Shown here in pieces: positions 5,377-51,076 of a DNA stretch of 52,791 nt. Origin of the DNA: a virus (taxonomy: Duplodnaviria; Caudoviricetes); IMG/VR virus record IMGVR_UViG_3300035150_000010, positions 1 through 52,791 of that record, one strand, 5' to 3'. Under the pieces are notes generated by a model. That model was not told the DNA's origin, did no database searches, and was given only the letters and a program-made list of their open reading frames with translations. Positions within the stretch are counted from its first letter, which is position 1; every line of letters starts with the position of its first letter. A program made the position numbers and the translations under genes.

Positions 5377-5859
5377 TCATTGCGCCAATCCAATCTCTTG
5401 CTTGAGTTCATCAATGATCGCCCTGTCCGCACCATTCATGATGAACCATCCCTCATCCCACGCCGGAGCCCACACGTTCTGCGGAACACTGACAGTCATT
5501 ATTGTCTCAATCTCAAGCGCCAAGGCACAGGCGACACGATGAGACCCGTTAAGCAATTCCCCAGTCGGGTCTATTGGAACCGCGCAACGTGGATCAAATC
5601 CATTCTTGTTCATGGAATGAAAAAGGGCCTTCGCGGCCCCTAGATAATCATCCGTGTTCTGTTTCCAAAAGTCTGTCGGCAATCCGGCTTCCATGCGCTT
5701 TCCACTGCGCTTCAGGATATGCCAGATATAAAGTTCTTCCGCTTCCTTATCACCACCAGACAGGAGCGCTTTGAACAGCCTCAACTTGACCGCCAAGTCC
5801 AGTCTGCGCGGGCTGACGAGGCTCCAGGTATTTCGGGCGCATGGCAGGAGCGTTGGCAT
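5377..5859 (-). CDS. ParB/Sulfiredoxin-fold protein (possible kinase or NTPase)
   Basis: GELLNGSHRVACAL resembles the ParB/Srx DGxHR motif; probable start MPTLL at 5859 within ORF 5377-5973. Confidence 0.6.
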   Translation of the reverse strand: MPTLLPCARNTWSLVSPRRLDLAVKLRLFKALLSGGDKEAEELYIWHILKRSGKRMEAGLPTDFWKQNTDDYLGAAKALFHSMNKNGFDPRCAVPIDPTGELLNGSHRVACALALEIETIMTVSVPQNVWAPAWDEGWFIMNGADRAIIDELKQEIGLAQ

Positions 5860-6472
5860 GTCCAAGTTCTTCTTCCCGCTCCTTCGAAAAGTCGATAAGT
5901 TCTTTGCGTGCAATATCGATATTCCCTGTCGTGCTGATGACCTTGACCGGTACGCCCCTGTCATCAAGAACATTCCTCGCGAATTCGATTGCCGGCTGCA
6001 TCAATGGACCCATGAAAGACCTGTTTTCATGAGCTGTCTCTTTGACCTTTTCCCGTGCAACATTCCGTTCAACAAGCGCATCCGCATCAGTCTCAAGGAA
6101 TACGACGCCAAGAGATACCGGCATAAGGCGGAAAAAATGATACAACTCCTCAACCGGCTTCCCCATATCGACAAGTCGCCAGCCAAAGCCAAGCCCCCTT
6201 TGAACAAACCCTGTTTGAATATATGGCTTGCCACTCTCCATCGCAGAGACGGAGGCCATCTTGCGCATTGATCGGCGGTTCATCCTGACCGCCGCCACAA
6301 ATGATTTATGTTCTCGGACCAATCCAAGAAGCCTGCTTACCTCGTTGCAGAAGTCATGCCACTCAATCGGCGGCTTGATTTCGCGCGGCTCGACGTCATG
6401 CGGACCCCAGAGCGGATCGCAAAGCGTTGATTTACCGACGCCCGGAGGCCCGGCTACATCACACCAACGCAT
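5750..6472 (-). CDS. P-loop kinase (nucleoside/sugar kinase-like)
   Basis: N-terminal GPPGVGKST, VVFLE...LVERN..R lid-like segment. Confidence 0.7.
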   Translation of the reverse strand: MRWCDVAGPPGVGKSTLCDPLWGPHDVEPREIKPPIEWHDFCNEVSRLLGLVREHKSFVAAVRMNRRSMRKMASVSAMESGKPYIQTGFVQRGLGFGWRLVDMGKPVEELYHFFRLMPVSLGVVFLETDADALVERNVAREKVKETAHENRSFMGPLMQPAIEFARNVLDDRGVPVKVISTTGNIDIARKELIDFSKEREEELGHANAPAMRPKYLEPRQPAQTGLGGQVEAVQSAPVWW

Positions 6473-7086
6473 TACCGACGCTCCAAAACGATCACCCTGT
6501 AGTCAGGCTCGCCACACTCGATATTCTCGACAAGCTCCCAATCTTCATTAAGCGCTGCGTGGATGTCTTCCATTGGATATGCGTATGGATGATTGGCAAT
6601 GCGCGCCGTGAAGACGATCTTGCTCTTGGTAACGCGCTGCAATTCCTTCAGGGCTTGTGTGCGCTGCTCGGGAGTGAGCCATCTGGTAAGACGGCACATG
6701 ATTGACATGTCGAAGATTCCGTCATCGAAATCAAGACAGGTCGCATCGCCAGTGCTTAGATTGATAACGTTTGGTTTTGACTTTGTTACTTTGGCGGCTG
6801 CCTCTTTCAGCATGTCCACGCTTTTATCAACACCGCGCCAATCGTGGTCATTGCGCTCATAAGCAGGAATGAAGCGGCCGGTCCCTACCGGGACGTCAAG
6901 AATCTTCGAGCCAATCTCAAGGATGTCAATAAACCCTTCGATAATGCGTTGTTCTGCTGCCCATTTAGGTGCTGCCTTACGCTTTGCATCATAGCCGGTA
7001 GCAACATCACCAACGTATTTCCGCGCCCCGTATTGTTTCTCTTGTGTCGGATTAGAGCCTGTGTAGCTCATGAGTGATTTGTTCAT
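6472..7086 (-). CDS. Class I SAM-dependent methyltransferase
   Basis: ILDVPVGTG motif I, GVDKSVDML, GDATCLDFDDGIFD, ALKELQRV. Confidence 0.9.
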   Translation of the reverse strand: MNKSLMSYTGSNPTQEKQYGARKYVGDVATGYDAKRKAAPKWAAEQRIIEGFIDILEIGSKILDVPVGTGRFIPAYERNDHDWRGVDKSVDMLKEAAAKVTKSKPNVINLSTGDATCLDFDDGIFDMSIMCRLTRWLTPEQRTQALKELQRVTKSKIVFTARIANHPYAYPMEDIHAALNEDWELVENIECGEPDYRVIVLERR

Positions 7087-7096
7087 GTCGGGTCTC

Positions 7097-7801
7097 TCAA
7101 TGGTACGCAGATTTTATCCAAGGAAACTTAGCTGCCACTTCGGGTTGATCCACCATCCGGTTGCCCGGGAAGGTGATCAGGCAAGCGTTATCGGGTAATT
7201 CGCTTATCTTGTCACTATTGTAGTCGCCAATTCGTCCGGCGCCATAAACGCCATCTCGGTGATCGACAAAAGGCAGATCCCAAGGAAGCATTTCGGAAAT
7301 CCACGCCTGTTCGGCACCACCAAAGCGCCAGTTAACCCACTTCGGCGTTTCGACTGGATCAAATTCCTCGTAAAGTTCCGGGTGCACCCCTGTACTGAAT
7401 AATTGAAAGCTCGATTGATAAAAGGCTCTACCACGCTGAGGAAATCCCGGGTTATGAAACCAGACCGAAGGCTCAGTCCTGTTTGCTATGTGATCCATGT
7501 TACCGACTATGACCATATCAAGGTCCAGGTTCATAACCCTATCACCGCCGATGATGTCGGCATAGTCAGGCCGATGTTGCATCAAGCGGATGAAAACTGT
7601 TCCGGGTACGTGCTTTGACCAATCGAGTTTGACAGTTTCCACGCCATCAACGTCATCATCCGTGACGCAAACAAACCTGTGTGGTACTGTCAGGTTGCGT
7701 TCAACCATGTTCCGCAAAATGCGTATATGATCGTGATTGAACGTGTAGTTCCTTTTCCGGCTTTTGTCCTTCCAGAAATAGGTTGTTACTATGAGCATCA
7801 A
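7097..7801 (-). CDS. GT-A fold glycosyltransferase
   Basis: MVERNL..PHRFVCVTD, LDLD (DxD motif), SSFQL, EQAWI, TFPG; pattern of phage-encoded GTs. Confidence 0.8.
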   Translation of the reverse strand: MMLIVTTYFWKDKSRKRNYTFNHDHIRILRNMVERNLTVPHRFVCVTDDDVDGVETVKLDWSKHVPGTVFIRLMQHRPDYADIIGGDRVMNLDLDMVIVGNMDHIANRTEPSVWFHNPGFPQRGRAFYQSSFQLFSTGVHPELYEEFDPVETPKWVNWRFGGAEQAWISEMLPWDLPFVDHRDGVYGAGRIGDYNSDKISELPDNACLITFPGNRMVDQPEVAAKFPWIKSAYH

Positions 7802-8534
7802 GAAGATCCATATTCTCGGTATGTCGGGTCATGCTGGTCAAAAGCACCGAGAGGCAATCGAACAGCTGCAGGGATTATATAGCCTTTCCTCTTATGAAGA
7901 GGCGGACATTATTGATATTTGCACGCCTAATTATAAGCATTTGCCTGATGCTCATCATGCATTAACGACAGGAAACGACTGCATAATCGAGAAACCAATA
8001 TGCAATTTTACCCCTGATCTTTTACATCTTTGCGATGTCGAGGACCATGAGAATGCAAGGGCTTATCCAGTCCTTCAATATCGCAACACAGATATTCTCA
8101 GCTATCATTGCATCTGGCAGCGCTCACCAGATTACTACGCTGGTTGGCGAGGCAAGTACCGAACTGCGCTCGGTGGCGTTATCCTTTCCCACGGTATTCA
8201 TTTGATCGATCACGCCATTTGCCAATATGGCCGCGTTGCTTGTGTTGAATGCGAAACCTGGTCAGATCCCAGATACGCTTGCGAAGTGGAAACCAAGGCC
8301 GAAATACAGCTGGTGTTTTCTGGCGGACGCTCACGAAGCATTCACTTGGAAATCTCCCCAGACAAACCTACTTTCGCTCCTGCTAATCCGGGCTATCTCG
8401 ATTTCTTCCGCAACCTCGACAAGGCCCCGCGCCTCTCCGAAATCTATCACCTTCAGGAAGTGCTAGATGCCTGCTATGCTGCTTCCCGTTCTTCAAGCAT
8501 CATTACGCTATCTTCAGCGGCCTTGACCGCGTGA
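7791..8534 (+). CDS. Gfo/Idh/MocA family NAD-dependent (sugar) dehydrogenase, compact
   Basis: ICTPNYKH, IIEKP, YY.GWRG...GGVILSHGIHLID motifs. Confidence 0.8.
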   Translation: MSIKKIHILGMSGHAGQKHREAIEQLQGLYSLSSYEEADIIDICTPNYKHLPDAHHALTTGNDCIIEKPICNFTPDLLHLCDVEDHENARAYPVLQYRNTDILSYHCIWQRSPDYYAGWRGKYRTALGGVILSHGIHLIDHAICQYGRVACVECETWSDPRYACEVETKAEIQLVFSGGRSRSIHLEISPDKPTFAPANPGYLDFFRNLDKAPRLSEIYHLQEVLDACYAASRSSSIITLSSAALTA

Positions 8535-9514
8535 CCGAGCTTGCCTGAGAAGATACGCAACACTTTGTCATCGATCCGTTGCACGATGGTAGGCCTTTCG
8601 TCCGTTTCATCCTTGCGCGGCAGCACAACCCTCACCGTATACATCGGGCGAACAAGCTGCGCCTGACTGACGAAGGGAAGGTACTCAGATAGAGCATCTT
8701 TCATCTTCTCAAAATTGGACCCGTCTGGGCGATATTTCGGCGCTTCATATCCTGTGACGCGCTTATGTATGGCGTGCTCAACATGCCCCATCAGGTGGAG
8801 CCCGCTACCAATCGGGTCAATGCAGCCATATGGCCCATCCATGACAACGCAACCAACGTTGGCGTATTGCTCCGGAAGCTTGACGATCGGCTTTTCTATG
8901 ACCTCGTATTGCAGTTCAATCGGGCTATAGCCAAGACCCTTCATGATTTCATTCGTCCCGGCATATCCGGCGACGATGATCTTGTCATAAACTTCGGCCA
9001 ATAGATGATAATCCCGACGCGCCTCAAATGGCGGACTGGTTTTGATCTGAACTCCACATTCACTAAGATTGTTGCGAACGATTCTTAATAGTGCAGGATA
9101 GTCTATTCGTCCCTCACTGACGAGATAAGCGGACTCAAGGCTATCATCATTGAACAGATAAGGCGCGGCAACTTCAATAACGCCGTCGCCTAGTTCATTC
9201 CTGTCCATGAACGCTTCATAGGCTTCACGTCCTGTCTTGGATCCTTTTGCGATTGCATAGAAATGCGCGTCATCATATGAGACCGCATCACCGTATTCAC
9301 GCAGAAAGCTCGCCATGCTGTTTCGGCATTCCTGCACGGTCTTGTCTGAGCGCGGGTAATGGTATCCCTTGTGCAGCCGGTATTGATTGACCTTGGTTGC
9401 TCCAAGCATGATATCTGCGGCATTGTCATAGATTGTCACGTCATGACCGGAACGCGCTGCATAAACAGCGGCAGTGCAGCCGAATAATCCACCACCGATA
9501 ATGGCAACGCGCAT
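8474..9514 (-). CDS. FAD-dependent oxidoreductase (DAO-like)
   Basis: MRVAIIGGGLFG Rossmann motif, GATKVNQYRLHKGYHYPRS, MDGPY, SGK. Confidence 0.9.
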   Translation of the reverse strand: MRVAIIGGGLFGCTAAVYAARSGHDVTIYDNAADIMLGATKVNQYRLHKGYHYPRSDKTVQECRNSMASFLREYGDAVSYDDAHFYAIAKGSKTGREAYEAFMDRNELGDGVIEVAAPYLFNDDSLESAYLVSEGRIDYPALLRIVRNNLSECGVQIKTSPPFEARRDYHLLAEVYDKIIVAGYAGTNEIMKGLGYSPIELQYEVIEKPIVKLPEQYANVGCVVMDGPYGCIDPIGSGLHLMGHVEHAIHKRVTGYEAPKYRPDGSNFEKMKDALSEYLPFVSQAQLVRPMYTVRVVLPRKDETDERPTIVQRIDDKVLRIFSGKLGHAVKAAEDSVMMLEEREAA

Positions 9515-10245
9515 CAGAATTGCTCCTCGGGCGGCTCGAACAAGCGGGACTCAGGCGGTGCGACAACCTCAATACCAAACTGTGTCGCCTGCCAGATGAA
9601 ATACTGAATACCAGGGCGCTGATATAGATACTCGCTCTTGCTGGCTTGCATAACGCCCCATATCCCGATGCGTGGGATGTTCAGGCGCTGACAATCAACA
9701 ATTGCCTTGGCGAGCATAAAGGCAATGGAAGATGTGAACATGAACGGACAAAACCGCTCTTTCATCTCCGCTTCCGGATATTCTCTTGCTTCCTTGAACC
9801 ACGCAATGTTCTGGCGTTGCAACTCTGCTTGCTCATGAAGATGCTGTATTTGTACGTATTCTTCCTGATTATTGGCCGCATCCAACGGAGGAGCCATCGG
9901 AACACGCATCCACACGCGATGCCCGAAATGCTCAATGGATCTCAGATAGTGGTAAGACCGCGTTTGATCCTGGATCGGGACATGAACCTCGAACCATTCG
10001 TCAACGCGCGGGAGACTGCGCTGTTCGATGTTATGCGGCGAGCAGGCATAGATCAGCCACTTCGGATCATTGAACGGGGCTTGATCAACCGTTGCTGGGT
10101 GCGAGCCAAGCACCGCGATTCCATCGAATTTGGGCTTGGTTTCCTTAGCGTTCGAAACGTCTTCGGCGAATTCCGCTAGATCAAACGCCTTATCCGGCGA
10201 TGTCTCAGCGATCTTATCCGCTGCTTTCTGTGCTTTTTTTGTCAT
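9514..10245 (-). CDS. Putative Maf / sialyltransferase-like glycosyltransferase
   Basis: IAVLGSHP...IYAC and TSSIAFMLAKAI...IGIWGV resemble the two conserved blocks of CstII/GT29/Maf (DUF115)-like folds. Confidence 0.5.
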   Translation of the reverse strand: MTKKAQKAADKIAETSPDKAFDLAEFAEDVSNAKETKPKFDGIAVLGSHPATVDQAPFNDPKWLIYACSPHNIEQRSLPRVDEWFEVHVPIQDQTRSYHYLRSIEHFGHRVWMRVPMAPPLDAANNQEEYVQIQHLHEQAELQRQNIAWFKEAREYPEAEMKERFCPFMFTSSIAFMLAKAIVDCQRLNIPRIGIWGVMQASKSEYLYQRPGIQYFIWQATQFGIEVVAPPESRLFEPPEEQF

Positions 10246-10272
10246 GTCGGGCCTTTGTTGGATTAATTGTAA

Positions 10273-10362
10273 TTAAGAGCGGCCATGATTCGGGTGATAG
10301 CCGTACTCAATTTCTGCATTTTTTCGTGCTGTTATTGCATCCTCGATATCAATAAATAGGCG
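10273..10362 (-). pseudogene. C-terminal remnant of an HNH-AP2 homing endonuclease
   Basis: Translates RLFIDIEDAITARKNAEIEYGYHPNHGRS*; in-frame stop immediately upstream and no start codon. Confidence 0.7.
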
Positions 10363-10686
10363 TTATTATCTTTGACACACCACGCCTTATGGGTGTGTGA
10401 TGCTCCCGTTTACAATCGGGAGGATAAGTTATGAAGCCATTTCAGAGCAAAAGCGTGTTTCATCTGCTTACAATAAAGACGCAGCTTACTTGCTAGAACA
10501 GATCCAAGCGACAAACGGAGAGGTATTACCTCCCCGTTTGTAAGAGGTACACCCGGCGCATCTTTCATGGCTTCACTCCATTAAAAAACCCGGCTCAATG
10601 GCCGGGGCGATATTCTGATTAATCATTTTTGGGCGGCGGTCGCATAAACCATAGGATCGCAGCGCCAACGATGAGAATAGAGCCAA

Positions 10687-10899
10687 TTATTCGGCCTTCA
10701 CCCGGACTAATATCAACGGGGTCAAAAAATATCCCGCTAAATCCTGGCCAAAACCAAGAGCCCAAGTCACAGATTCCCAAGCTATATAACAACCTTCCCA
10801 CTCATCGACCGCCCTGTCGAGGGCGGCTTGTACTGGGCCATCCTCGACAATCTCTAACACTAATTCAAACCTAACTCTTTCGCCCTTTTTCGCGCCCAT
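10687..10899 (-). CDS. Short ORF downstream of the Panacea gene; possible truncated toxin partner
   Basis: Overlaps the end of the antitoxin gene; ...AVDEWEGCYIAWESVTWAL... Confidence 0.35.
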   Translation of the reverse strand: MGAKKGERVRFELVLEIVEDGPVQAALDRAVDEWEGCYIAWESVTWALGFGQDLAGYFLTPLILVRVKAE

Positions 10900-11411
10900 T
10901 CAATAGCTTCGGCGCTAGGCTCTTCTTTAATCCGCGAGGTCAGAAAAGCATGAAAGGGAAGATCCTCACCTTCACGGGCAATCTCCCAACCATAATCATG
11001 GCTTTCTTCACTAATCTCGTTTGCCGTTTTGCCGTTAACGTAATCAATCCACCAATTGACCTGCTTCAATTCTTCGGTCGAGAAAAGGAGAATGTCTGGT
11101 GGCTGATTAGCTTTAAATATCCATACCTGCGGGCCGCGCTCGCCATATGTCTTATGACGTAATTGGGAAATTAAACCTGTTTGCTCAAGCTCATTCCTAA
11201 TAGGCATTATCTGATGCGGGACAGGGCCAAATTTTTCGCGGATGTAGCGAGCACCTGTAATTGATTTTCCGGTAAGCGAAAATGAGCGTGCGTCAGCGAA
11301 CCACAAAACCTTATTAAGCTTCGTAGCGCCAAAACCATCGGCAGCGCCGGCTTTCCATATGATGTAATGGACCAGCGCCTTGAACTTTTCGCGATTGAAT
11401 TTCTCGCTCAT
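10860..11411 (-). CDS. Panacea/SocA/GepA-like (DUF4065) antitoxin-domain protein
   Basis: KFKALVHYI...TKLNKVLWFAD...G.SITG..Y....FGPVP...SEESH..W; likely start MSEKF. Confidence 0.85.
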   Translation of the reverse strand: MSEKFNREKFKALVHYIIWKAGAADGFGATKLNKVLWFADARSFSLTGKSITGARYIREKFGPVPHQIMPIRNELEQTGLISQLRHKTYGERGPQVWIFKANQPPDILLFSTEELKQVNWWIDYVNGKTANEISEESHDYGWEIAREGEDLPFHAFLTSRIKEEPSAEAIEWARKRAKELGLN

Positions 11412-11597
11412 TTTCCTCCTCCTGCGCGGCAACAGAAACCCCGCGCTGGAGTTCTTTCGTCTCAATCATGCATGTTCGCTGCTGTTAACGTCAAAGTTTG
11501 CGCCCCTGTAAAGGCGCGACCCCTGGAAACCCGACAGATCCAGGGGCCGCTAATCTGCGCAGATGTTTTGTTTAAAGTCGGGTTAACTCAAACTGGC

Positions 11598-12473
11598 TTA
11601 GAGGCCAGTATCACGCGGAGCCGAGACGTTGATCCAGTCAACATCCACATACTGCGCACCACCTGTGTCACCCCATACAAGGACAGTCGGGGTTAGCGCG
11701 GTTGACATGGCGATGGGACTTGCAATCGAGCCGGCCGCAACGCCGTTGACATAGAAGGTCGCAGTGCCGCCCGTATCAGAAATGCCGTGATGCACTTCGA
11801 CTTCCAGCGTGTCATAGATGCCCATGGTAACGCCGGTGTCGAGAACGACTGGCGTCCGATCCGTATTACCGTTCACTGCATAGCCGACCCAGCCGGTATC
11901 ACCACCGCCCTTGGAAGCAAAGCCAATACCAACAGCATTGGTAGCCGGAGAGACAATCGCGCCGCCCGTATCGATGACCGGGATTTCCGTAGCGTCCAGC
12001 GTATCGGTAAAACCCATCCAGACGTTGATTGAGTTGTTGCCGGTGTCATTGGTCCAGTGCGCTTTCAGGCGAGCGCCCATGCGAAGACCGTTCTTGGTAT
12101 CGGTCGGAATAGAACCCTGATTGCCCTTCCATGCGAGGTTCTGGGTGATACCCATGCGGGCATCGGCCTTGGGCGTATCGCCGAGGCTAATGCGCAGAAT
12201 GCCGCTAGTGCCAGGAGCCACGACAACGTTGGAACCGGTATCAGTGCCGGTGTCGCCATCGACAACCCGCCAATTCGGATCGGTGTTGCCACGAATGGCG
12301 CGGCCAGTATCACCGATGAAATCGTCAAAGACAGCCACGGTGTCAGGAGAAGAGTGAACGATGACAGGCTTACCTTCGCCACCAGAGACAAAGCCCTTGT
12401 AGGCGATAACCTGATCATCCTTTGACAGGCCTAGCACCCTGCGGTGTAGACCCTTGAGGATTGAGATAGACAT
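11598..12473 (-). CDS. Probable virion surface protein, beta-sandwich (lectin-like), with 10 DTG motifs
   Basis: FDDF...ATFYVNG...VDVDWI jelly-roll pattern; located in the late operon; DTG x10. Confidence 0.65.
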   Translation of the reverse strand: MSISILKGLHRRVLGLSKDDQVIAYKGFVSGGEGKPVIVHSSPDTVAVFDDFIGDTGRAIRGNTDPNWRVVDGDTGTDTGSNVVVAPGTSGILRISLGDTPKADARMGITQNLAWKGNQGSIPTDTKNGLRMGARLKAHWTNDTGNNSINVWMGFTDTLDATEIPVIDTGGAIVSPATNAVGIGFASKGGGDTGWVGYAVNGNTDRTPVVLDTGVTMGIYDTLEVEVHHGISDTGGTATFYVNGVAAGSIASPIAMSTALTPTVLVWGDTGGAQYVDVDWINVSAPRDTGL

Positions 12474-12594
12474 GTGATTTCCTTACTGATTGCTTATTGC
12501 TTCGGATGTCAGGTTATGCCGGGTTACTAATCAAAAGTTGCGGTGGTTTATATAACCCCGTGATTTTAAGCATTTCTGCTACTTATGATTGTTT

Positions 12595-13002
12595 TTATGC
12601 AGATATGATGGTCAAATCGGCACCATTAAGCCCCTTGGTGCCATCTGCCCACTGGATTTCCCTCAAGTCGCCATCTTCACCACGCGTGTCGAACAGCTCA
12701 CCAGTAACCTGATCGGCATTGATAAGCTGCCCATCCTTGCCGCGAACAAACCCACTGCCATCGATGTAGAACTTGTGGTCGACCTTTTGAGCCTGCGCCT
12801 TCCTTGGACGTCCAGGCTTTCTCTTGACAGGTGTTGGAGCGCTGGGCTCGGTCGCGGTGTCCTCGTATCCGTAGGCTGTTTGCAGGGCCATAGCCATGAG
12901 GTTTAGCCAAGCTTCTTGCTGGCTTGCTGAGAACTTGTCGCCCTCGTTCGGGAGCTTGGAAACCAGTGCATTGATGAGGGGATCGCGCTTCTTACGGCTC
13001 AT
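12595..13002 (-). CDS. Hypothetical protein
   Basis: 135 aa ORF translationally coupled to its upstream neighbour; AT-hook-like KPGRPRK. Confidence 0.6.
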
Positions 13003-13136
13003 GACTTCTTCTTTTTCTTCTTACCGGCTTCCGACATTGCGATAGCGATGGCCTGCTTCTGAGGTCTGCCGGATTTCATCAGCTCGGAAATGTTCTGAGC
13101 GATTGTCTTGCGGCTCTTGCCTTTCTTGAGAGGCAT
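12999..13136 (-). CDS. Small basic phage peptide ([45 protein letters not shown])
   Basis: 45 aa ORF read by hand; MPLKKG..QAIAIA pattern common near phage packaging genes. Confidence 0.75.
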
Positions 13137-13139
13137 TAA

Positions 13140-13523
13140 TCACTGCCTTGTATAGAGGTGAAGGTGGACTTCCTTCCCGGTATCAGTCGCCAGCCCTTGG
13201 ACGCTGACCTTGACTTTCTCACCTGCCAGAGCAAACGGCAAGTAGGACGTCGCGGTAATTGCCCCACCAGTGTCCATCATTGGGGCCTGGATATGTCGCA
13301 TCCAGGACGTCCCATTTGGCACCAAGTGGAAGACGCTCAGAACAGGCCCACCCTCGCCGGTATCAAGCTGCATGGTGACGACAGCGCCCGTATCGGCGCG
13401 AACGCCAGTATCGGCAGCATAGTAGGAAATCTGCTCAAGCTGACCATTCAGTGTCCCGCTGACGGTGGAAGCGTTTGCCCCTGTGTCCGTTGTCAAAACG
13501 AGATGATGCCTTGTGACTGTCAT
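13140..13523 (-). CDS. Probable virion surface/decoration protein with 6 DTG motifs
   Basis: Beta-rich 127 aa ORF coupled to TerS; DTG x6. Confidence 0.6.
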   Translation of the reverse strand: MTVTRHHLVLTTDTGANASTVSGTLNGQLEQISYYAADTGVRADTGAVVTMQLDTGEGGPVLSVFHLVPNGTSWMRHIQAPMMDTGGAITATSYLPFALAGEKVKVSVQGLATDTGKEVHLHLYTRQ

Positions 13524-14035
13524 TCTTCTGTCCCTTCATCATCTATCTTGGCGTCGCCTAGCACGGAAAGAATTGCCCTTGCGAGCTGGCGCGGGTCTGT
13601 GTCTGCGTTGCTGTCGATCTTACCATCGTGCTTGATATCAAGCTTTTCGCCATATTTTTTCGGGAGCAGTTTGGAAGCAACCCACTTCCTTGAATCAACA
13701 CGAAGCTTTGAGCGCTGGATAGCTTCACCGTTAACGGACCATCCAATATTTTCGCCGTCCGCGTTCTTGCGCTCCATCCAATCATTCGAACCATCGTCTG
13801 AGATATCCATAATCTCGTCGGCCAGAACTTCGGCTTGAGCCTCACGTGATTGCGCGTATTGGTCGCGGAATTCCTCGTGTTTTGCAATCCAACGAAAGAC
13901 AGTTGCCCTGTTTGGCATGTCCTCATCGGAGCATATAGACCGCAAGCTTTCTCCATCGCAGATACGCTCACAAATGTCATCGCCGAGTTCTGGCGTGAAA
14001 TCTGTTGGTCTACCTACTTTAGCCATTGAATGCAC
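13520..14035 (-). CDS. terS: Terminase small subunit (Sf6 gp1-like)
   Basis: GRPTDFTPEL...ICERI..GESLRSIC...MP...TVFRW...RKW.ASKL.PKKYG. Confidence 0.92.
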   Translation of the reverse strand: MHSMAKVGRPTDFTPELGDDICERICDGESLRSICSDEDMPNRATVFRWIAKHEEFRDQYAQSREAQAEVLADEIMDISDDGSNDWMERKNADGENIGWSVNGEAIQRSKLRVDSRKWVASKLLPKKYGEKLDIKHDGKIDSNADTDPRQLARAILSVLGDAKIDDEGTEE

Positions 14036-14339: not shown

Positions 14340-15456
14340 CCAGAACAGGACAGCCGGTCCATTATCTGAAAGAGCCCTTCGCACCCTGTCAACGCACACT
14401 TCATAGATAACCGACTGCTGACTATGCCGTATGTGCCTCACGCCTGGGTCAGGCTTAGAAGGAGGAATCCAACCATGACGCAGCCTTTAAACATACGCTT
14501 CGCAGCCACTGACGCAGAGGTGATAGTTGTCGATGGCACCGCGCTCTTGGTCTTTGACACTGACAAGGACGGCCGGGTTGGCGTGGAAATGCCTCGGTCC
14601 GTTTGCGAGCATCTAAGCGAGCAATTGCAGTCATCTCTAATTTCCTCAATCGATCCTTCTGATCACAAGTAAAGATCGTAGTCATGTTTGACCTCACTAA
14701 TCCGATTTACTCTGACGCTGATAAAGCTCGCGAACATCTCGAAGCCATCCATTGGCCCGATGGTCCGATTTGCCCGCATTGCGGTAACTGTGACCAGAAG
14801 CGCATCACCAAGCTTCAAGGAAAGTCCACCCGACCCGGCGTGTTTAAGTGCAAGGAGTGCCGTAAGCCCTTTTCCGTGACTGTCGGCACCGTCTTTGAGC
14901 GCTCCAAAATCCCGCTCAACAAGTGGGTACTGGCAACGCATTTGATGGCAGCTTCCAAGAAAGGAATTTCAGCCCACCAGCTACACCGCATGCTTGGCGT
15001 TACCTACAAAACCGCTTGGTTTATGGCCCATCGCATCCGTGAGGCAATGGCACCATCTACGTTACTAGCTGCCCGCCAAAACGCTGAGTACCCATCAGTT
15101 AACCTTTGGCGGGCAGCTAGCCCCGCGGCACGGACCTGTTTTTGACCCGCTCAGACCGGATAACTAAAACAGCCTCTCCGTCGAGTAGCAGGGACGCACT
15201 GAAAAAAACGTCAAGCAGCTATCCAGATGATGTATGAATACGGATCAGATGGGGTTTTAGGCGAAGGAGCATCAGTTGAGCCACTTCCTTTAAGTCTATG
15301 GCCGCATCCATTTCGGGATCGCCCTGTCCTAATCCATCGCTAATCTGAAATAGTCGAAGCTGCTCCGCGAGCGCCTCTATCATCTCCGGCGTGACCTCGA
15401 TTTCCTCAAGGGAATCAGACTTATCGCAATCTTGGTACGTCACGTATATAATTCCC
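14340..15456 (+). mobile_element. IS1595-family element remnant with small passenger ORFs (left boundary uncertain)
   Basis: Truncated transposase; candidate right inverted repeat GGTACGTCACGTATATAATTCCC at 15434-15456; matching left IR not clearly found. Confidence 0.55.
14684..15145 (+). pseudogene. IS1595-family transposase, truncated (Zn ribbon and HTH only, DDE domain missing)
   Basis: WPDGPICPHCG...CKECRKPFSVTVGTVFERSKIPL...KKGISAHQLHR..GVTYKTAWFMAHRIREAM, then similarity is lost. Confidence 0.9.
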
Positions 15457-18246: not shown

Positions 18247-19458
18247 TCAGGTTCTGACCGGCGGATGGGTATATTCGCTCTGCGGGTCGCCAATCCGCCA
18301 AGCTTGAGCCGCTATAGCGGTCTCGATAGGTAGGTTGTCGATATCTGATACACGCGGAATTCCTTCCACAATGGTACCATTGCGCGGGCACTTAGCCTGA
18401 AGAAACCGACCTGGTTCTCGTAGCCCAGGAAGAGTTAGTTCAATCAGCGCGCCCATATCGCTATCCGGATCACCGTCTATCACCTTACGCTTCAAAACCT
18501 TCACCATGCGATTCCATCCAATCATGGCGGCACCCGCAGCGCGCTGTTCGACGTTCTCGCACTTCAGTATCTCTGCCGGATCGATAGTTTCGCGGTTCTC
18601 GACCCATTCCTTAGGCAGACGGACGCCGTGCCAAGCGTGGATTTCAAAGCCGTCAGGATACCGGATTGCGGGTCCAGTTTCAGAGTGAATACGGCCGTTC
18701 TCCAGTTTGCAGATTTTATGTCTCTCAGAGACAAAGCAGACGTTTCGGTAAGGTAGACACCATCCAGCAGATTTTGACAGTTCCCACAAACCAGTAAGCA
18801 CCGCAGTCTCGTTCACCAAATCGCATTGGTCCGCAAAAAATGCGTAGAATGCTAGCCAATGGGCATCATGTTGACCATAGACGATGTCCCAGACGCTGTC
18901 CCTGACGCTGGCCCTGACGCTGGCCATGACGCTGGCCCTGGTGCTGGCCCTGACGCTGTCCCCGGCACTGGCCCAGACGCTGTCCCCGACGCTGTCCCTG
19001 ACGCTGTCCCAGACGCTGGCCCCGACGCTGGCCCCGGCGCTGTCCCAGACGCTGTCCCTGACGCTGTTCCTGACGCTGTCCCCGACGCTGTCCCCGACGC
19101 TGGCCCAGACGCTGTCCCCGACGCTGGCCCAGACGCTGGCCCAGACGCTGGCCCAGACGCTGTCCCTGACGCTGTCCCAGACGCTGTCCCTGACGCTGTT
19201 CCTGACGCTGGCCCCGGCGCTGGCCCAGACGCTGGCCCCATTTCTTACCAAATGAAAAGCAAGCGTGTTACCTAATGGGCTTTGCGTCCAAACAATGCGC
19301 GGCGCCCTCAAGCCAGCATTTTGATACATCCAATTAATCGCAGATTCAGCGCGCGGTCGGTCCGCAGGCTCAGTGGAAAGTCCTATTTTAGTCCATTTCT
19401 CCACGTACTCTGGAAACTTGGCTTCCTGCTCATAAGTGAGTTTTTCAATCTTCTTCAC
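18247..19458 (-). CDS. DUF6745-like protein with internal S-V-x-x tetrapeptide repeats
   Basis: GQHDAHWL...SAGW..PY...CFVSER...GRIHSETGPAIRYPDGF.IHAWHGV. Confidence 0.75.
   Translation of the reverse strand: MKKIEKLTYEQEAKFPEYVEKWTKIGLSTEPADRPRAESAINWMYQNAGLRAPRIVWTQSPLGNTLAFHLVRNGASVWASAGASVRNSVRDSVWDSVRDSVWASVWASVWASVGDSVWASVGDSVGDSVRNSVRDSVWDSAGASVGASVWDSVRDSVGDSVWASAGDSVRASTRASVMASVRASVRDSVWDIVYGQHDAHWLAFYAFFADQCDLVNETAVLTGLWELSKSAGWCLPYRNVCFVSERHKICKLENGRIHSETGPAIRYPDGFEIHAWHGVRLPKEWVENRETIDPAEILKCENVEQRAAGAAMIGWNRMVKVLKRKVIDGDPDSDMGALIELTLPGLREPGRFLQAKCPRNGTIVEGIPRVSDIDNLPIETAIAAQAWRIGDPQSEYTHPPVRT
18880..19238. repeat. Degenerate 12-bp tandem repeat (GACGCTG[T/G]CCCN), about 30 units
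   Basis: Directly visible; encodes SVWD/SVRD/SVWA/SVGD. Confidence 0.95.
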
Positions 19459-45847: not shown

Positions 45848-46216
45848 TCACCCGTTTTCCCAGCGCATTAGAACGCCTGATCTTTTGTCTGTCTTAAAAC
45901 CAAGTCGCTCAAGCCATTTCCTAGCCATTGGTTCTTCTTCATCAGGAACGGCATAGACAAAACGAAGCCCCATCTTTCTTGCCTCATCCATAATTTTTCT
46001 TGCCGTCTTGGCAATCGTCACCTTATATGGCCTGGCTTCGTCCGTAATATCAAAGAAAGCATACCATCTTCCATCCAATTCACGCGCAAGACCGAATAAA
46101 GCTATAGGTTTCCCATCTTTTTTTGCTACAAATGCCTTCATTGTTGGCTTCGGTGCGTCGTTGGAAAAAAATTCGACGTCTTCTTTAGTCGCTTTTTCTA
46201 TGGAATTAACGCTCAT
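45848..46216 (-). CDS. GNAT-fold internal virion protein A (T7 gp13-like)
   Basis: DGKPIALFG...ARKWLERLGF. Confidence 0.7.
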   Translation of the reverse strand: MSVNSIEKATKEDVEFFSNDAPKPTMKAFVAKKDGKPIALFGLARELDGRWYAFFDITDEARPYKVTIAKTARKIMDEARKMGLRFVYAVPDEEEPMARKWLERLGFKTDKRSGVLMRWENG

Positions 46217-49200
46217 TCGTGGTCACCCTTGGGAGAAGTGCCATAATTGTCGCTGGTCTTGGGGCTTTTGCTCTTACGTATATTCTTGAATCCTCGTCGT
46301 AATCTCCGTCAAATGCATGCGCGAACTTGTCGTATTCAGAGAAAATCTTGTCAGCATCGACAGTTGAACCATTATCAATGACTCTTGGCATTGGGTCTAG
46401 ATGACCTGTATCAGATCCCATAAATAATGCGTTGTTGTGTGTCTGGCTCAGAATAAGCGCAATTCTGTCAATGCGCTTGACCATGGTCATCGCTGTCGAA
46501 CCCTGCACGCCATAGGCAAGCTTTGTCGATTTATAGTCAGCCCTATATGGAAGCCCGCCAACGACATGCTTTACACCGCTATCGGTCATCGTCAGGTCGC
46601 CGCCAGTATCGAGTGATAACAGAACTTGGTCACCACCAGTGTCGTCAGGCGTAAGGTCTTTCCCGTAACTGTTTGATTGACCGGTATCATTCCCCCATGC
46701 CGCAATTGTCTGCCCGCCGATATGCTCGGCAAAGTCAGGGATTAAAGCGGTTGCCCCTGTATCCGTGTAACTGACAGCGCAATCCATCAGCCATGACAGT
46801 CCCGTGTCGCCTTGGCATTCAGATTCCATCGCCCACTTTTCCAAAAACCTCCGCGTTACTCCGTTGATTGTTCTTCTGACATGATAATAAACGTTGTCTT
46901 CCACATCACCCGGAAGCACCATGGCACGCTCGACGGCGCTATCTGATCCGGTATCGGTAACCCATTTAGACCATGCGAGAACCTCTTCTTGAGGCTCATA
47001 CGTCAAAATTGCCACGGTCCCGTCAGCCAAGACGCAATGAATCCTGGTATCCGGTTGCCTTTGTATGGCGATTGAGACGACGCCGGTCCTCAATACATCC
47101 GGAGTAAGAATCGTTAGTTCCGTTGACTCATATTCATTGAATGAACTTGCGCTCGTACCAATTCCGAACAAATAAAGCCGTTCTCCGCTGCGCTGTATGA
47201 AAAGCCCTCTATTGTCCATTTTCATCGCTCGCAAAGTCGCTGACCCTTGCGTCGAGAATGCATTGGCTGAGGCGTTTGTAGGGGTTAGCGTTTCATCGAT
47301 GGAAGATGACTTGATTGCGATTTCGCTTCCAGAAGTTCCGGCAACAAGACGCAACAGGGAAAGAAGATATTGAATCGCGTCAACCGGGCCAGAGCCAAGC
47401 GTTCTGGAAATTGGAGCCGATTCACCTTCAAGGGTAGCGTCGAAGTTTTCATAGTCATCAGAGACACTGCCCCATACATTCGCAGCCCCGGCATGCCACA
47501 AGCGGCCCTCGTGCAGGGCAACTGCTGTCGGGTATCCGCGACGTTCCGACCACGCCCCCTCGCGCCAAACTTCAGAGCCGCCCGTATCTGAAAACTGATC
47601 GATAACCTCTACGTTTACCTGTTGATTGGTGACATAGTCAGTAACTTTAGCGCGGCCGGTAACGCTACCATTCTTATAGGTGATGGAAACAATGGCCGCA
47701 CCACTTGTATAATTCGACATTCTCACACGATAAAAGACGGTGACATTGTCATCTTCATCGTCAATCGTCGTCGTAAACGTTCCAGTATCCGTCGCGTTTC
47801 CTGAGGTCACATGTGATTTTGTAACTTTCTTGTAACCAAAATCAGGGCTGTCAAATGATCTTTCTATTGTCAACTCGCCTGTATAGCTGCCACTGGCAGA
47901 AACGACCAAACGACGTTCGTTTTCCGCCGTCGGTGTTCCAGTGTCATTGATACCGGTTACCTCAATTACATTTGTTTCCGCATCTGTGTAACCAAGCGCA
48001 AACTCTCCAGATTGACCATTGTGCGTGATCTCAAACAGGGACCCGACCTGTGAACTGCGAAAGAATGGAATATCTGAATACAAAACGGTGTTACCGTATT
48101 TGCCGGCAATACTGAGTTTCGCGTTCGATGTACGTCCGGCAAGGAATGGACCGTTATCAGGTTCATACTTTACAACCGACCAGCTGCGCCCCGTCCCACG
48201 CCTCTCGATCTTGTATGGAGATACCCCAACGCAATCCGCGTAAACAATATCAGCCGATTGATCGTATCTTATGGAATCAAGATTAGAGGCGGCCCACGGC
48301 GTTTTAATCTCAACCGTTCCAGAATCACCAATAGAGAGAGATTCAACAATTCGGCTTACGTCATTCGCTGTTTGTAATGTAATATAAAACGTCCCGGATG
48401 GCACGAATGCCAGGTTATGATATCCTGTCCCAATGGATGTCTCGGATACATAATCATCATCACCATCCGTTGAGCCAACACGAATCGTTACAGGCCCACG
48501 ACCGACGTGAATATCTAGTGAGTGCTCAACCTCACTGTCTCCGGTATCAACTGTTACGGTCTTTTTCGCTCTTGCTGTTGACCCAATCGCCCCGGAATTC
48601 AGAACGAGTTTCTGGTTTACAGCATTTGTTGAAAGAAGTTCAATTTCAGCCAGTTCAACGGCTGCACCTGAACCATCACCAGCCGCGTTTCCGGTGTCAG
48701 TCGAAACCACCAAAAGACGCCAATGTCGCCGCGCCTCAACAGTCCCTGTATCAGATCCAGGAAGGGTATAAGTCCTTTGCTCGCTTACCCCCCAATCGAT
48801 TTCAGAGGTGCGCTCATCTTCAAGCGTCCACTTGCCCGTATCCGTGGCGTATGTTCCAGTGTCATAGTCCCCAGTGATAAGCCTCCACGCTCTTGGCGCA
48901 TTGTCCAGAAAGGTTGCTGCATTTGCGCTTCGGATTGTGTAGGAGCCAACGGCAACGTAGTTTTGTGTTTTCGCACCGGTATCAAGATCAACATTCAGCC
49001 AGCTTGGAGTTGCTGGTGTCGTCGGGCTTCCGGTATCTCTCCAGAAAGTTCCAAAATTTCCATCTGCGGCATTCCACGGAAGACCACCAAAAGCCCCGGC
49101 ATCTGTCGATGATGACGCTGTAATTTTAACGCGGTTGGTCGTCTCCGAAACCATCATTGGAATTATTGAACTTGTTGTCGTTGCCGCATTCCCGCCAATG

Positions 49201-49592
49201 GAGTCATCGTACCAACCAGTGTCGGAAATAGAGACAGCAGTGCCAACGGAAGGTCGTGCCATTGGGACCAGAAGGCCAGTCTGATTAGGAGTCTCCCATG
49301 TATTGCCGGTATCACTCGGAAGCCAGACGCGCATTTTCTGATTGGTCAATTCGAGCAGCGCTGTCTCTGTAGTAGACGCAACAAACTCGACCCATGCTGC
49401 TCCGGTATCATTTATGGAGTTGCCGACATACTTTGTGCCCGGACGCAAGATCATGGGACCCTGCGTCTTGGGCAGGAAGTTCGTCATGATTTCCGCAGAA
49501 AGACGCGTCCTGTCCAAATCTGTTCTGGCAAGGGTGGTCTTGGAGATGATCCCGCGATTAAAGCTAAGTAATGGAGCATATGTCGTTGCCAT
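46206..49592 (-). CDS. Tail tubular protein B (nozzle), enlarged, with 20 DTG and 2 DSG motifs
   Basis: SFNRG, RPGT.YV, QSAD, GYP.AVALHEGRLW, EEVLAWS, VGGLPY motifs. Confidence 0.9.
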   Translation of the reverse strand: MATTYAPLLSFNRGIISKTTLARTDLDRTRLSAEIMTNFLPKTQGPMILRPGTKYVGNSINDTGAAWVEFVASTTETALLELTNQKMRVWLPSDTGNTWETPNQTGLLVPMARPSVGTAVSISDTGWYDDSIGGNAATTTSSIIPMMVSETTNRVKITASSSTDAGAFGGLPWNAADGNFGTFWRDTGSPTTPATPSWLNVDLDTGAKTQNYVAVGSYTIRSANAATFLDNAPRAWRLITGDYDTGTYATDTGKWTLEDERTSEIDWGVSEQRTYTLPGSDTGTVEARRHWRLLVVSTDTGNAAGDGSGAAVELAEIELLSTNAVNQKLVLNSGAIGSTARAKKTVTVDTGDSEVEHSLDIHVGRGPVTIRVGSTDGDDDYVSETSIGTGYHNLAFVPSGTFYITLQTANDVSRIVESLSIGDSGTVEIKTPWAASNLDSIRYDQSADIVYADCVGVSPYKIERRGTGRSWSVVKYEPDNGPFLAGRTSNAKLSIAGKYGNTVLYSDIPFFRSSQVGSLFEITHNGQSGEFALGYTDAETNVIEVTGINDTGTPTAENERRLVVSASGSYTGELTIERSFDSPDFGYKKVTKSHVTSGNATDTGTFTTTIDDEDDNVTVFYRVRMSNYTSGAAIVSITYKNGSVTGRAKVTDYVTNQQVNVEVIDQFSDTGGSEVWREGAWSERRGYPTAVALHEGRLWHAGAANVWGSVSDDYENFDATLEGESAPISRTLGSGPVDAIQYLLSLLRLVAGTSGSEIAIKSSSIDETLTPTNASANAFSTQGSATLRAMKMDNRGLFIQRSGERLYLFGIGTSASSFNEYESTELTILTPDVLRTGVVSIAIQRQPDTRIHCVLADGTVAILTYEPQEEVLAWSKWVTDTGSDSAVERAMVLPGDVEDNVYYHVRRTINGVTRRFLEKWAMESECQGDTGLSWLMDCAVSYTDTGATALIPDFAEHIGGQTIAAWGNDTGQSNSYGKDLTPDDTGGDQVLLSLDTGGDLTMTDSGVKHVVGGLPYRADYKSTKLAYGVQGSTAMTMVKRIDRIALILSQTHNNALFMGSDTGHLDPMPRVIDNGSTVDADKIFSEYDKFAHAFDGDYDEDSRIYVRAKAPRPATIMALLPRVTTNER

Positions 49593-49598
49593 TGATGC

Positions 49599-50237
49599 TT
49601 AACCAGTCAGATTATTGCGAGAGCCACGATCACCGGAACCTGTCTTTCCGGATCTGGATTCCGTCCATGCTCCCGGAGGTTTGAATTTCGGGTTTGGTTC
49701 GTTCATCGCATCATGGTTGAGAGCCTTCCTCCGATATTTGTCCCGCTTTGCTTCAAGCTCTTGTCTAAGCCCCCTGTCTTGCGTAAGACTCATGCAGACA
49801 CGACAGGCAAGTTCAAGTTCTACATATCGTGTAAAAGCGGCTGTCCAGCGGTTAAGTTCAAGCCCGAGGCCAGTATCATTCGAGACATACCGAACATAAA
49901 GCGGCGTCGTGTCGGAAGACCAGTAATTGACATCATCATAGTAATGCATCAGCGGATGCGAAAAATATTCATCCGCTGAAATCGCATGTGTACGAACCCA
50001 ATCAGCAGGCTTGGCGAAGACTTCCGTATAGCCAAAGTTAGGTGTTACACCCGTGTCCGCATCAACCTTGACTGTTTCCATGGCAAAGTTCCAGGATCCT
50101 GCCTCAAGGCATTCTTCCAGAACCTCGTCATAGACATCATCAAGCGCGCGTCTGGCCTTGACATTTTCAGTTGTCAAAACCTTCCGGCTACCAAGTTCAT
50201 ACAGGGCACCGGTGAACAAGCGCTGCTTTGTGGTCAT
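49599..50237 (-). CDS. Tail tubular protein A (adaptor)
   Basis: AL.ELG, WNFA, P.DWVR, LYVRYV; DTG x2. Confidence 0.85.
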   Translation of the reverse strand: MTTKQRLFTGALYELGSRKVLTTENVKARRALDDVYDEVLEECLEAGSWNFAMETVKVDADTGVTPNFGYTEVFAKPADWVRTHAISADEYFSHPLMHYYDDVNYWSSDTTPLYVRYVSNDTGLGLELNRWTAAFTRYVELELACRVCMSLTQDRGLRQELEAKRDKYRRKALNHDAMNEPNPKFKPPGAWTESRSGKTGSGDRGSRNNLTG

Positions 50238-50797: not shown

Positions 50798-51076
50798 TTA
50801 AAGTACGCCGCCAGTATCATTGGCGAGCGCGATGGTGCCGGTCGTTCCGCCGGTATCCTGAACAACGGTAAACTGGCCGCGATAGACCAGATCAGCGTTG
50901 CGGTCGATAACCGTGATGGAGTCCCCGACAGTGACGCCGTAGTTCTTGGCATCTTCGATAAAGCCGGAACCCTCGTAAGTCGCAAGGGTTTCACCGCCGG
51001 TATCATCATATTGCCAGCTTTTGGCACCAGCAATCGGCTGGCCGCAGAGTTGCAGTCCTTTGGAATCATAGCCCAT
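50798..51076 (-). CDS. Probable capsid decoration/cement protein with 3 DTG motifs
   Basis: 92 aa ORF directly after the capsid gene; GGAGG RBS; DA...G..VGD.I.V. Confidence 0.65.
   Translation of the reverse strand: MGYDSKGLQLCGQPIAGAKSWQYDDTGGETLATYEGSGFIEDAKNYGVTVGDSITVIDRNADLVYRGQFTVVQDTGGTTGTIALANDTGGVL

Follow-up and report, generated by a model that had tools for sequence, protein, structure and literature searches.

A D-T-G tripeptide concentrated in tail and fibre proteins of a phage clade, a candidate sequon for phage-encoded virion O-glycosylation

In the mycobacteriophages studied by Freeman et al. in Cell Host Microbe in 2023, capsid and tail-tube subunits are reportedly modified, and the phage glycosyltransferases, joined in some phages by methyltransferases, probably act in the cytoplasm on the phages' own structural proteins. 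We know of no short sequon for this glycosylation. The general O-glycosylation of Bacteroidota is periplasmic, draws on lipid-linked glycans and uses the sequon D-(S/T)-(A/I/L/V/M/T); the Maf enzymes belong to the MptE-like fold group. 'Extensive glycosylation' of mycobacteriophage virion proteins is mentioned in one paper (PMC12582341), and large DNA viruses of the chlorovirus type are described as encoding their own glycosylation machinery for capsid proteins, independent of the host pathway (PMC4691112). Two further sources describe Mafs as cytoplasmic enzymes that act, ahead of assembly, on surface-exposed Ser/Thr of a structural protein that has already folded, with activated nonulosonic or ulosonic acids linked to cytidine monophosphate (CMP) as donors (PMC12645811, PMC11339370). 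One Maf has been reported to accept 3-deoxy-D-manno-oct-2-ulosonic acid (Kdo) instead of the native nonulosonic acid (PMC11339370), and the review on these enzymes gives no known sequon for any of them (PMC12645811). Here we analyse a linear, complete-looking record of 52,791 bases from an uncultured tailed phage (IMG/VR virus record IMGVR_UViG_3300035150_000010, completeness estimate 93%), called the window below, in which the tripeptide D-T-G (DTG), replaced in places by D-S-G (DSG), recurs in five proteins, two of them encoded, together with a cluster of predicted enzymes, in the stretch 5377-13523. The cluster includes a 243-amino-acid (aa) protein predicted to have a sialyltransferase/MptE-like fold, a GT-A-like glycosyltransferase, an S-adenosylmethionine (SAM)-dependent methyltransferase, a P-loop protein and a 198-aa protein. 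The concentration of DTG noticed in an initial annotation of this DNA is confirmed and lies far beyond chance. We consider it on balance probable that D-[T/S]-G serves as acceptor motif for a late, cytoplasmic modification of the O-glycosylation type, which the phage encodes and which acts on tail and fibre proteins.

Relative to the known systems, such a modification would be new in its targets, its strict tripeptide and its enzyme families; phage-encoded virion glycosylation itself is already known. A literature search, limited to one library of papers, found no DTG motif and no other sequon described for phage virion proteins. As in the mycobacteriophages, the glycosyltransferases, which are here predicted from genes alone, would be encoded by the phage and would serve its own structural proteins. 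The present system would differ in that the capsid protein lacks the motif, the predicted targets being nozzle, adaptor and fibre-like proteins, in that a bare tripeptide would mark the sites, and in its enzyme families, one of sialyltransferase fold and the other GT-A-like, neither of which has a Pfam model. The chloroviruses, in contrast, are viruses of eukaryotes in which the major capsid protein is the target. With the Bacteroidota system the putative sequon shares its length of three residues and the order of an Asp followed by a hydroxyl acceptor, but its third residue is Gly, which falls outside the set given above, and here the cluster proteins look soluble and virion assembly is cytoplasmic.

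The initial annotation had counted 41 DTG in five proteins of the window, and this count is exact. Ten are found in the 291-aa protein (11598..12473, minus strand) and 6 in the 127-aa protein (13140..13523, minus strand, just downstream of the small terminase gene, terS). Twenty, accompanied by 2 DSG, are in the 1128-aa nozzle, a tail tubular protein B-like protein (46206..49592, minus strand; PHROG 376, 7.6e-126). The 212-aa adaptor, which is tail tubular protein A-like (49599..50237, minus strand; PHROG 394, 6.4e-33), has 2, and a 92-aa protein adjoining the capsid gene (50798..51076, minus strand; PHROG 18004, function not assigned) has 3; the label 'decoration' for this last protein was a guess of the initial annotation. 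Among 20,000 composition-preserving shuffles of each protein, none reached the observed count for the 291-aa protein, the 127-aa protein or the nozzle, 64 did so for the adaptor and 17 for the 92-aa protein. Every T-G dipeptide of the 291-aa and 127-aa proteins follows a D. Outside the five proteins, 27 of the 28 other minus-strand genes examined in the window contain no DTG and one (36161-37360) contains a single copy; the count is zero in the portal, scaffold and terminase proteins, in the internal virion proteins (PHROG 418 and 342) and in all of the enzymes, in keeping with a motif of exterior proteins.

The 41 sites are spelled by 17 distinct codon triplets. Matches to the pattern GAYACNGGN number 44 on the minus strand and 6 on the plus strand, where about 6.4 per strand would be expected for random sequence. 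The variety of codons and the minus-strand excess thus point to selection on the peptide and not on the DNA, and a DNA-level repeat or methylation-type motif was ruled out by the 17 triplets together with the strand- and frame-specific excess. The third residue is Gly at all 41 sites of the window and at all 369 sites of a pooled set. A longer sequon was considered and rejected: at the 369 sites the flanks from -5 to +8 are near background, and no single residue is enriched more than 2.7-fold.

The 291-aa, 127-aa and nozzle proteins are predicted modification targets. Homologues of the 291-aa protein number 157 in a collection of 5.8 billion proteins, and all 120 of those listed carry 4-10 DTG and 0-3 DSG, DTG being their commonest tripeptide by a wide margin. 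Its AlphaFold2 (AF2) model, with a predicted local distance difference test (pLDDT) score of 79.1, is a concanavalin-A-like jelly roll in which all 10 DTG lie between predicted strands, in agreement with the loop position that the initial annotation had proposed to check. Foldseek matches this model to legume lectins and SO2946, and in BFVD to SO2946-like C-terminal and Mtd N-terminal domain proteins and to a minor tail protein, so that the predicted fold resembles the distal domains of phage tail fibres. The 127-aa protein has no Pfam or PHROG family; its counterparts of 124-130 aa at the same position in six loci are 23-29% identical, with the DTG columns among the few that are conserved. 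In addition, fibre-like repeat proteins of relatives carry DTG as the constant head of each unit of 9-20 residues, with 32 copies in 680 aa, 29 in 656, 18 in 390 and 35 in a 923-aa fragment.

Related contigs, designated here by L numbers, were fetched with the 291-aa family (8 loci), the portal (27 loci) and the 198-aa family (36 loci), many of the loci being overlapping views of the same contigs. Thirteen distinct related contigs have one arrangement in common with the window: upstream of the large terminase gene (terL) and the portal gene lie a 243-aa orthologue, the GT-A-like gene in one to three copies, and the genes for the methyltransferase, the P-loop protein and the 198-aa protein (160-200 aa in the relatives). 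DTG-rich open reading frames (ORFs) are present in all 13. A DTG-rich gene lies directly upstream of the 243-aa orthologue in 12 of them, and the locus of the thirteenth (L043) starts inside the 243-aa gene. This upstream gene encodes a homologue of the 291-aa protein in most contigs, and in L044 and L061 a 101-aa protein with 3 DTG. The terL gene has been exchanged among these phages (22-68% identity to that of the window) while the cluster stays put. Around the conserved core the accessory genes vary, and they include those for an FAD-dependent oxidoreductase, a short-chain dehydrogenase/reductase (SDR), FkbM methyltransferases, an epimerase/dehydratase of nucleoside-diphosphate sugars (1.6e-49), a B12-binding radical-SAM enzyme and a marginal sulfotransferase-like match; with its conserved core and variable tailoring enzymes the cluster thus resembles glycan loci.

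The enrichment of DTG tracks the cluster among these relatives. Full-length or near-full-length nozzles of the positive clade contain 20 DTG in 1128 aa in the window, 17 in 1125 in L010, 13 in 1092 in L014, 14 in 1100 in L020, 14 in 1109 in L023, 17 in 1122 in L024 and 17 in 1109 in L035, and 19 in 1038 are present in L025, a member of the same clade whose cluster region is off the contig. By comparison, where the cluster is absent from the 10 kb preceding the portal gene, the nozzles have 1 in 916 (L027), 0 in 1242 (L029, with L030 identical) and 0 in 897 (L032); that of L026, whose upstream region is outside the view, has 0 in 698, and that of L066, which carries only the four-gene module described below, 2 in 890. 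The possibility raised in the initial annotation, that nozzle and decoration homologues of phages lacking the enzymes would be equally rich in DTG, is therefore not borne out, the nozzles of relatives without the cluster having 0-2 as against 13-20. Adaptor homologues show 29 DTG in 11 sequences from cluster-positive phages and 1 in 4 from negative ones, and the 92-aa protein has 32 across 11 homologues. When the five target families are pooled, with L004, L007, L019, L021, L022, L030 and L033 left out because each either repeats a contig already counted or is a near-identical copy, cluster-positive phages have 267 DTG in 15,529 aa where 12.6 are expected, and phages without the cluster have 2 in 4,743 aa where 2.5 are expected.

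The behaviour of individual sites is consistent with a modified residue. Twelve aligned nozzles show the motif at 30 columns, 12 of which are filled in all 8 positive sequences. At other columns the motif is gained, lost or displaced by a few residues within the loop, as at 396/399, 243/247 and 601/603/613, and in single sequences DSG stands in place of DTG at the same column. The nozzle sites lie in loops or clade-specific insertions, and three outgroup nozzles have gaps or unrelated residues at nearly all motif columns. In the alignment of the 291-aa family (120 members), DSG is the only recurrent alternative at columns of full or near-full occupancy, with for example 117 DTG and 3 DSG, or 115 and 5, among 120 sequences. 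Since Thr is exchanged only with Ser at conserved columns, the hydroxyl appears to be the feature that is kept.

Moreover, the motif is avoided elsewhere in the same phages. Apart from the target families, the positive phages supply 206 proteins (61,593 aa), which comprise enzymes, terminases, portal, scaffold, capsid and internal proteins, and these contain a single DTG where 15.1 are expected from composition; cluster-negative loci have 5 where 4.3 are expected. Ranked by depletion among tripeptides of similar expectation, DTG stands 3rd of 946, or 6th of 1,624. This empirical rank is used in place of a Poisson P of 4e-6, which is too strong a figure for proteins that form homologous families. 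Enrichment in some proteins with depletion in the rest is what would be expected of a motif that has a consequence wherever it is present.

A different explanation, which we regard as unlikely, makes D-[T/S]-G a structural or binding motif, such as a turn or a metal- or ligand-binding loop, that has spread in the tail proteins of the clade, with the enzymes acting elsewhere (on the host envelope, a small molecule or DNA) and the linkage reflecting shared ancestry. The exchange of Thr for Ser would also fit a turn of the ST/Asx type, but the motif occurs in unrelated families and folds, including the jelly roll, the nozzle, the adaptor, small proteins and repeat fibres, its flanks are near background, and its sites shift within loops and sit in insertions. 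A neutral structural motif would not predict that DTG is among the most depleted tripeptides in the rest of the same proteomes, and the DTG-rich gene that immediately precedes the 243-aa gene in 12 of 13 contigs also speaks against this explanation. As for the version in which the enzymes modify DNA, phage clusters for DNA hypermodification, of the hydroxymethyl-pyrimidine kinase type, are found in genomes that encode a pyrimidine hydroxymethylase (thymidylate-synthase-like) or a TET/JBP dioxygenase, and this version is weakened in that no thymidylate-synthase-like or TET-type gene was found in the 30 ORFs of the window scanned with Pfam, a scan that took in shorter ORFs and the 25-36 kb region only in part.

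Several observations weigh against an acceptor role of D-[T/S]-G, and some of them would suit the structural explanation. The alignment of the 291-aa family has 23 motif columns, six of which are filled in 101-120 sequences, and such near-invariance also fits a structural turn. All DTG-positive phages form one clade, with portals at least 51% identical to that of the window, while the portals of the negatives are 32-44% identical; membership in a single clade means that the homologues are not independent samples and that one evolutionary event may account for the co-occurrence. A module of the GT-A-like, methyltransferase, P-loop and 198-aa genes is present in more distant phages (L057 and L062-L067) with neither a 243-aa nor a 291-aa relative, and the flanks examined there, at most 10 kb on either side, have no DTG-rich ORF. 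The adaptor of L066 has no DTG and its nozzle has the 2 mentioned above; the four-gene module alone is thus not tied to DTG, an occurrence that again suits a structural motif. Distant relatives of the 243-aa protein (about 30% identity) in L029/L030 and in the Microcystis phage Mvi-Yong1342-1 are likewise unaccompanied by DTG enrichment. Taken together, the module alone and the lone distant relatives indicate that DTG tracks the 243-aa orthologue and the module in combination. The major capsid protein and a tail-fibre-like 542-aa protein have no DTG though they are exterior, as the window's portal also has none, so that the particle would not be coated and the wording 'coating the particle' in the initial annotation was overstated. 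Further points of the same bearing concern the enzymes: the 243-aa protein has no match to PF01973 (DUF115) at E <=0.1, nor does any of 53 diverse members of its superfamily at E <=0.01, and a Pfam scan found no sugar-nucleotide synthesis genes in the cluster of the window. A different tripeptide was looked for in the phages with only the module or only a distant 243-aa relative, and none stands out as DTG does.

In L066 the four-gene module (9983-13532) is situated between the capsid gene and the adaptor gene. The relative in Mvi-Yong1342-1 (L037 7899-8702; PP496355.1 34781-35584) aligns with the 243-aa protein at 30.5% identity, the alignment covering 81% of its length; it lies directly upstream of terS and is annotated as 'type 11 methyltransferase', an annotation that may be wrong. 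The 243-aa family seems to favour a position adjoining the packaging genes.

With no sugar-nucleotide genes in the cluster of the window, host metabolism must contribute in any case. This leaves some room for the idea that the motif is read by a host enzyme, defence or receptor system and not by the phage cluster, for example by a kinase or protein-glycosylation system of the host or by a host factor to which the tail has to bind. We hold this to be very improbable, as it would leave the strict linkage to the phage's own enzyme genes unexplained, and as general O-glycosylation in Gram-negative bacteria is periplasmic while virion assembly is cytoplasmic. In addition, a search of 185,579 species genomes with the 291-aa profile found no prophage or host copy.

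On the phage-encoded reading that we favour, the best candidate for the enzyme that would recognise D-[T/S]-G is the 243-aa protein (9514..10245, minus strand). It has no Pfam family, and a profile of 11 sequences found no chain better than E 1.3 among the sequences of the PDB; its superfamily, which has no Pfam model, comprises 462 proteins at 90% clustering, or 2,611 representatives at 50% clustering with E <=0.001. The predicted relationship is therefore one of fold. Its AF2 model (pLDDT 77.9) was matched by Foldseek to the sialyltransferase Cst-II (1ro8_B, E 5.9e-4, TMq 0.44). In a VIA comparison the Campylobacter enzymes Cst-I and Cst-II and a Pasteurella sialyltransferase align with Z 8.6-9.0 over 150-162 residues, the two Cst enzymes with a root-mean-square deviation (rmsd) of 3.9-4.2 and 12-13% sequence identity over model residues 37-238. 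Thiamine pyrophosphokinase 3lm8 reaches Z 9.1 over 123 residues (rmsd 3.0), and the MptE-type hydroxymethyldihydropterin pyrophosphokinase (HPPK) 8sd5 of M. jannaschii Z 8.2 over 140 residues (rmsd 3.6). Such values of 8-9 are only moderately above the background of 7-8 stated for the tool, unrelated rows having Z <=6.5.

Cst-I and Cst-II of Campylobacter jejuni (family GT42) would thus be the closest solved fold over the longest alignment, but, apart from their low identity, they act on lipooligosaccharide and not on protein. The resemblance of the model to the MptE-like fold group (HPPK, Z 8.2) is likewise shared with the Mafs, from which the 243-aa protein differs in its much shorter length, in the lack of PF01973, in the strict tripeptide that is implied here and in having phage proteins as its putative targets. 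The description of this gene as 'Maf/sialyltransferase-like' in the initial annotation accordingly holds at the level of the modelled fold and fails as a statement of Maf membership by sequence.

The remaining genes of the cluster vary in how firmly they can be named. Two calls of the initial annotation are well supported, namely the class I SAM-dependent methyltransferase (6472..7086, minus strand; PF13649, 1.7e-14), which is a core member present in 8 of 8 loci, and the flavin adenine dinucleotide (FAD)-dependent oxidoreductase of the DAO family (8474..9514, minus strand; PF01266, 5.6e-20), an accessory member found in 6 of the 8 loci L002-L009. The GT-A-like glycosyltransferase (7097..7801, minus strand) matches PHROG 1962 'glycosyltransferase' (3.5e-8, residues 19-109) and has a D-x-D motif whose D93 and D95 are invariant in 22 sequences; it has no Pfam match and no PDB profile match, and its neighbours in the ESM Atlas, which carry PF03407/GT8 and PF01501 at scores of 0.93-0.94, serve as a lead only. 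One to three paralogues of this gene are present in relatives. The P-loop protein (5750..6472, minus strand), called a kinase in the initial annotation, is a core member whose Walker A motif G-P-P-G-x-G-K-S is invariant in 14 sequences, which sustains the P-loop part of the call; the match to AAA_18 (6.9e-6, 27 bits) is below the cut-off of 29.4 bits, and the best PDB profile match, a UMP-CMP kinase, is weak (E 0.059 only) and thus not significant. Attempts to identify the 243-aa, GT-A-like, P-loop and 198-aa proteins at sequence level by PDB profile searches gave nothing significant for any of the four.

The 198-aa core member (5377..5973, minus strand) was labelled 'ParB/Srx' in the initial annotation, a fold that the searches did not confirm. 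An alignment of 15 family members has 32 invariant columns, including H145 and R146 of G-E-L-L-x-G-x-H-R, with conservation from about residue 52 onwards. None of the 15 matches Pfam at E <=1, a PDB profile search gave nothing better than E 0.69, and an Atlas neighbour, with ParB_N in 16% of its members, scores 0.87, which is below the tool's mark of 0.9. The 5' part of this gene is overlapped in a different frame by the 3' end of the P-loop gene (5750-5973, minus strand), and the same junction is found in 14 loci. The terminal W-W of the P-loop protein is invariant and the conserved part of the 198-aa protein starts upstream of the P-loop stop codon, so that at least about 70 nucleotides (nt) seem to be conserved in two frames in all loci examined.

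The Gfo/Idh/MocA dehydrogenase that the initial annotation placed in the cluster (7791..8534) is a short oxidoreductase-like ORF with Pfam matches just above the cut-offs (28.4 vs 27 bits and 25 vs 24); it lies on the plus strand, has no homologue in L002-L036 and is specific to the window. None of the enzymes has a 19-residue window above a mean Kyte-Doolittle hydropathy of 1.69, and by this crude test they do look soluble, as had been stated.

These gene assignments also bear on the chemistry. D-[T/S]-G might be a modification motif with a non-glycan group, through phosphorylation of Thr/Ser or a phospho-linked or methylated small group added by the P-loop, 198-aa and methyltransferase proteins, the glycosyltransferase-like proteins having another part; we judge this decidedly improbable. 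Those three core genes are present in every locus in which that stretch is in view, but they also occur without DTG in L057 and L062-L067. The nearest PDB profile matches of the P-loop protein are, weakly, nucleotide kinases (the E of 0.059 given above), and the fold group of the 243-aa protein includes the two pyrophosphokinases; its longest structural alignments, however, are with sialyltransferases (150-162 residues against 123 for thiamine pyrophosphokinase). Moreover, the GT-A-like genes in one to three copies and the variable epimerase/dehydratase, FkbM and SDR genes behave as in glycan loci.

From motif statistics, conservation, gene neighbourhood, predicted folds and family matches we infer a modification, its chemistry, the acceptor atom and the enzyme that reads the motif. 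In the proposed glycosylation, the 243-aa protein would recognise D-[T/S]-G in exposed loops and add a first sugar from a host nucleotide-sugar, for which the fold suggests, as a guess, a CMP-activated ulosonic acid. The one to three GT-A-like transferases would then extend the glycan, and its tailoring, different in different phages, would fall to the SAM methyltransferase and the P-loop protein together with the variable enzymes of the FAD, SDR, Gfo, FkbM, epimerase/dehydratase and radical-SAM types. The suggestion in the initial annotation of a glycan on DTG is partly supported: it is strengthened by the comparison across relatives, the sialyltransferase/MptE-like fold and the sugar-tailoring genes of relatives, and it appears to gain further from the Thr/Ser exchange, the sliding sites, the avoidance elsewhere and the variability of the tailoring genes, while the coating of the particle and Maf membership by sequence fall away. 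A fuller account, which we hold more tentatively as possible though somewhat short of probable, is that a clade of uncultured podophages has a self-contained cytoplasmic O-glycosylation whose strict D-[T/S]-G sequon is read by a new, small sialyltransferase/MptE-fold family. The sequon would be seeded in nozzle, adaptor and fibre loops, at a density that in repeat fibres rises to one per 20 residues, and purged elsewhere, and the glycan would be diversified between phages through exchange of tailoring enzymes, in the manner of O-antigen loci.

Should it prove true, a phage virion modification would for the first time have a defined and portable sequon of three residues along with a compact soluble enzyme that reads it, and the finding would bear on the unsettled question of site choice by Maf-type enzymes. 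Glycans that shield tails and fibres, or act as ligands on them, could influence how the phage adsorbs, how stable it is and how it escapes immune recognition and the proteases of host or environment, and a three-residue tag with a cytoplasmic transferase could be useful for glyco-engineering. The pairing of enrichment in targets with depletion elsewhere would also offer a purely computational route to other sequon systems in viral metagenomes.

The flagged stretch also contains two genes that the initial annotation did not list, and its ORFs at 5377-5973 and 5750-6472 overlap. One of the two, at 10860..11465 (minus strand), encodes a SocA/Panacea domain (PF13274, 5e-14), has no homologue in L002-L036 and is probably an unrelated insertion outside the system. 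It is followed by a 60-aa ORF (10619-10801, minus strand) with one hydrophobic segment (Kyte-Doolittle 1.71), and the pair, which lies between the 291-aa and 243-aa genes in the window only, may be an insertion of the toxin-antitoxin type. The other, at 12595..13002 (minus strand), encodes a 135-aa protein without DTG and without a PHROG family; homologues were found by tblastn or blastp in L003, L004, L007, L014, L024, L035 and L040, and in several relatives they are inside the enzyme cluster.

The GC content of the window is even, at about 0.50, and its structural genes are on the minus strand in a T7-like order. The terS gene, of Sf6 type (PF20901, 1.6e-46), lies ahead of the flagged stretch, and terL and the portal gene (PF12236, 2.8e-73) follow it in that order, all three on the minus strand. 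After the portal come a scaffold-like gene, the genes for the major capsid protein, the 92-aa protein and a 168-aa protein, and then the adaptor and nozzle genes, with the PHROG 418 and 342 internal virion proteins and the 542-aa tail-fibre-like protein downstream of the nozzle. Among 50,697 phage records, neither a 25-kb megablast query nor tblastn with the 291-aa protein gave a match, and no close cultured relative was found; 130 phage records match the nozzle, all at less than 60% identity and none covering 80% of it. The sole hint of a host is a homologue of the 243-aa protein that bears the source name 'Aquamicrobium sp.'. An Rfam search of the window returned nothing at gathering thresholds.

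Several further features of the window were observed. The capsid ORF (51090-51893, minus strand) begins its similarity at 51893 with residue 14 of the capsid protein of L010, the first 13 codons not being found in the window, and a LAGLIDADG/HNH-like ORF (51915-52775, minus strand) ends 22 nt upstream of that point. The capsid gene is split over two or three ORFs in L011, L023 and L040, which suggests homing-endonuclease or intron-type insertions in the capsid genes of the clade. Just past terS and on the opposite strand, the ORF at 14684-15145 (plus strand) matches an IS1595-type transposase zinc ribbon (1.8e-11) and looks like a transposase fragment. A 403-aa protein with a DUF6745 domain (1.8e-24) is encoded at 18247-19458 (minus strand), in the early or replication region. 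A tRNA-Ser(GCT) of 74 nt was called by ARAGORN at 21568-21641 (plus strand), about 100 nt upstream of a gene (21738-23042, plus strand) whose product has TROVE and Ro60-vWA domains (2.1e-11). As a serine tRNA normally has a long variable arm, 74 nt is short, and the call could be the tRNA-like module of a Y-RNA-type partner of the Ro60-like protein.

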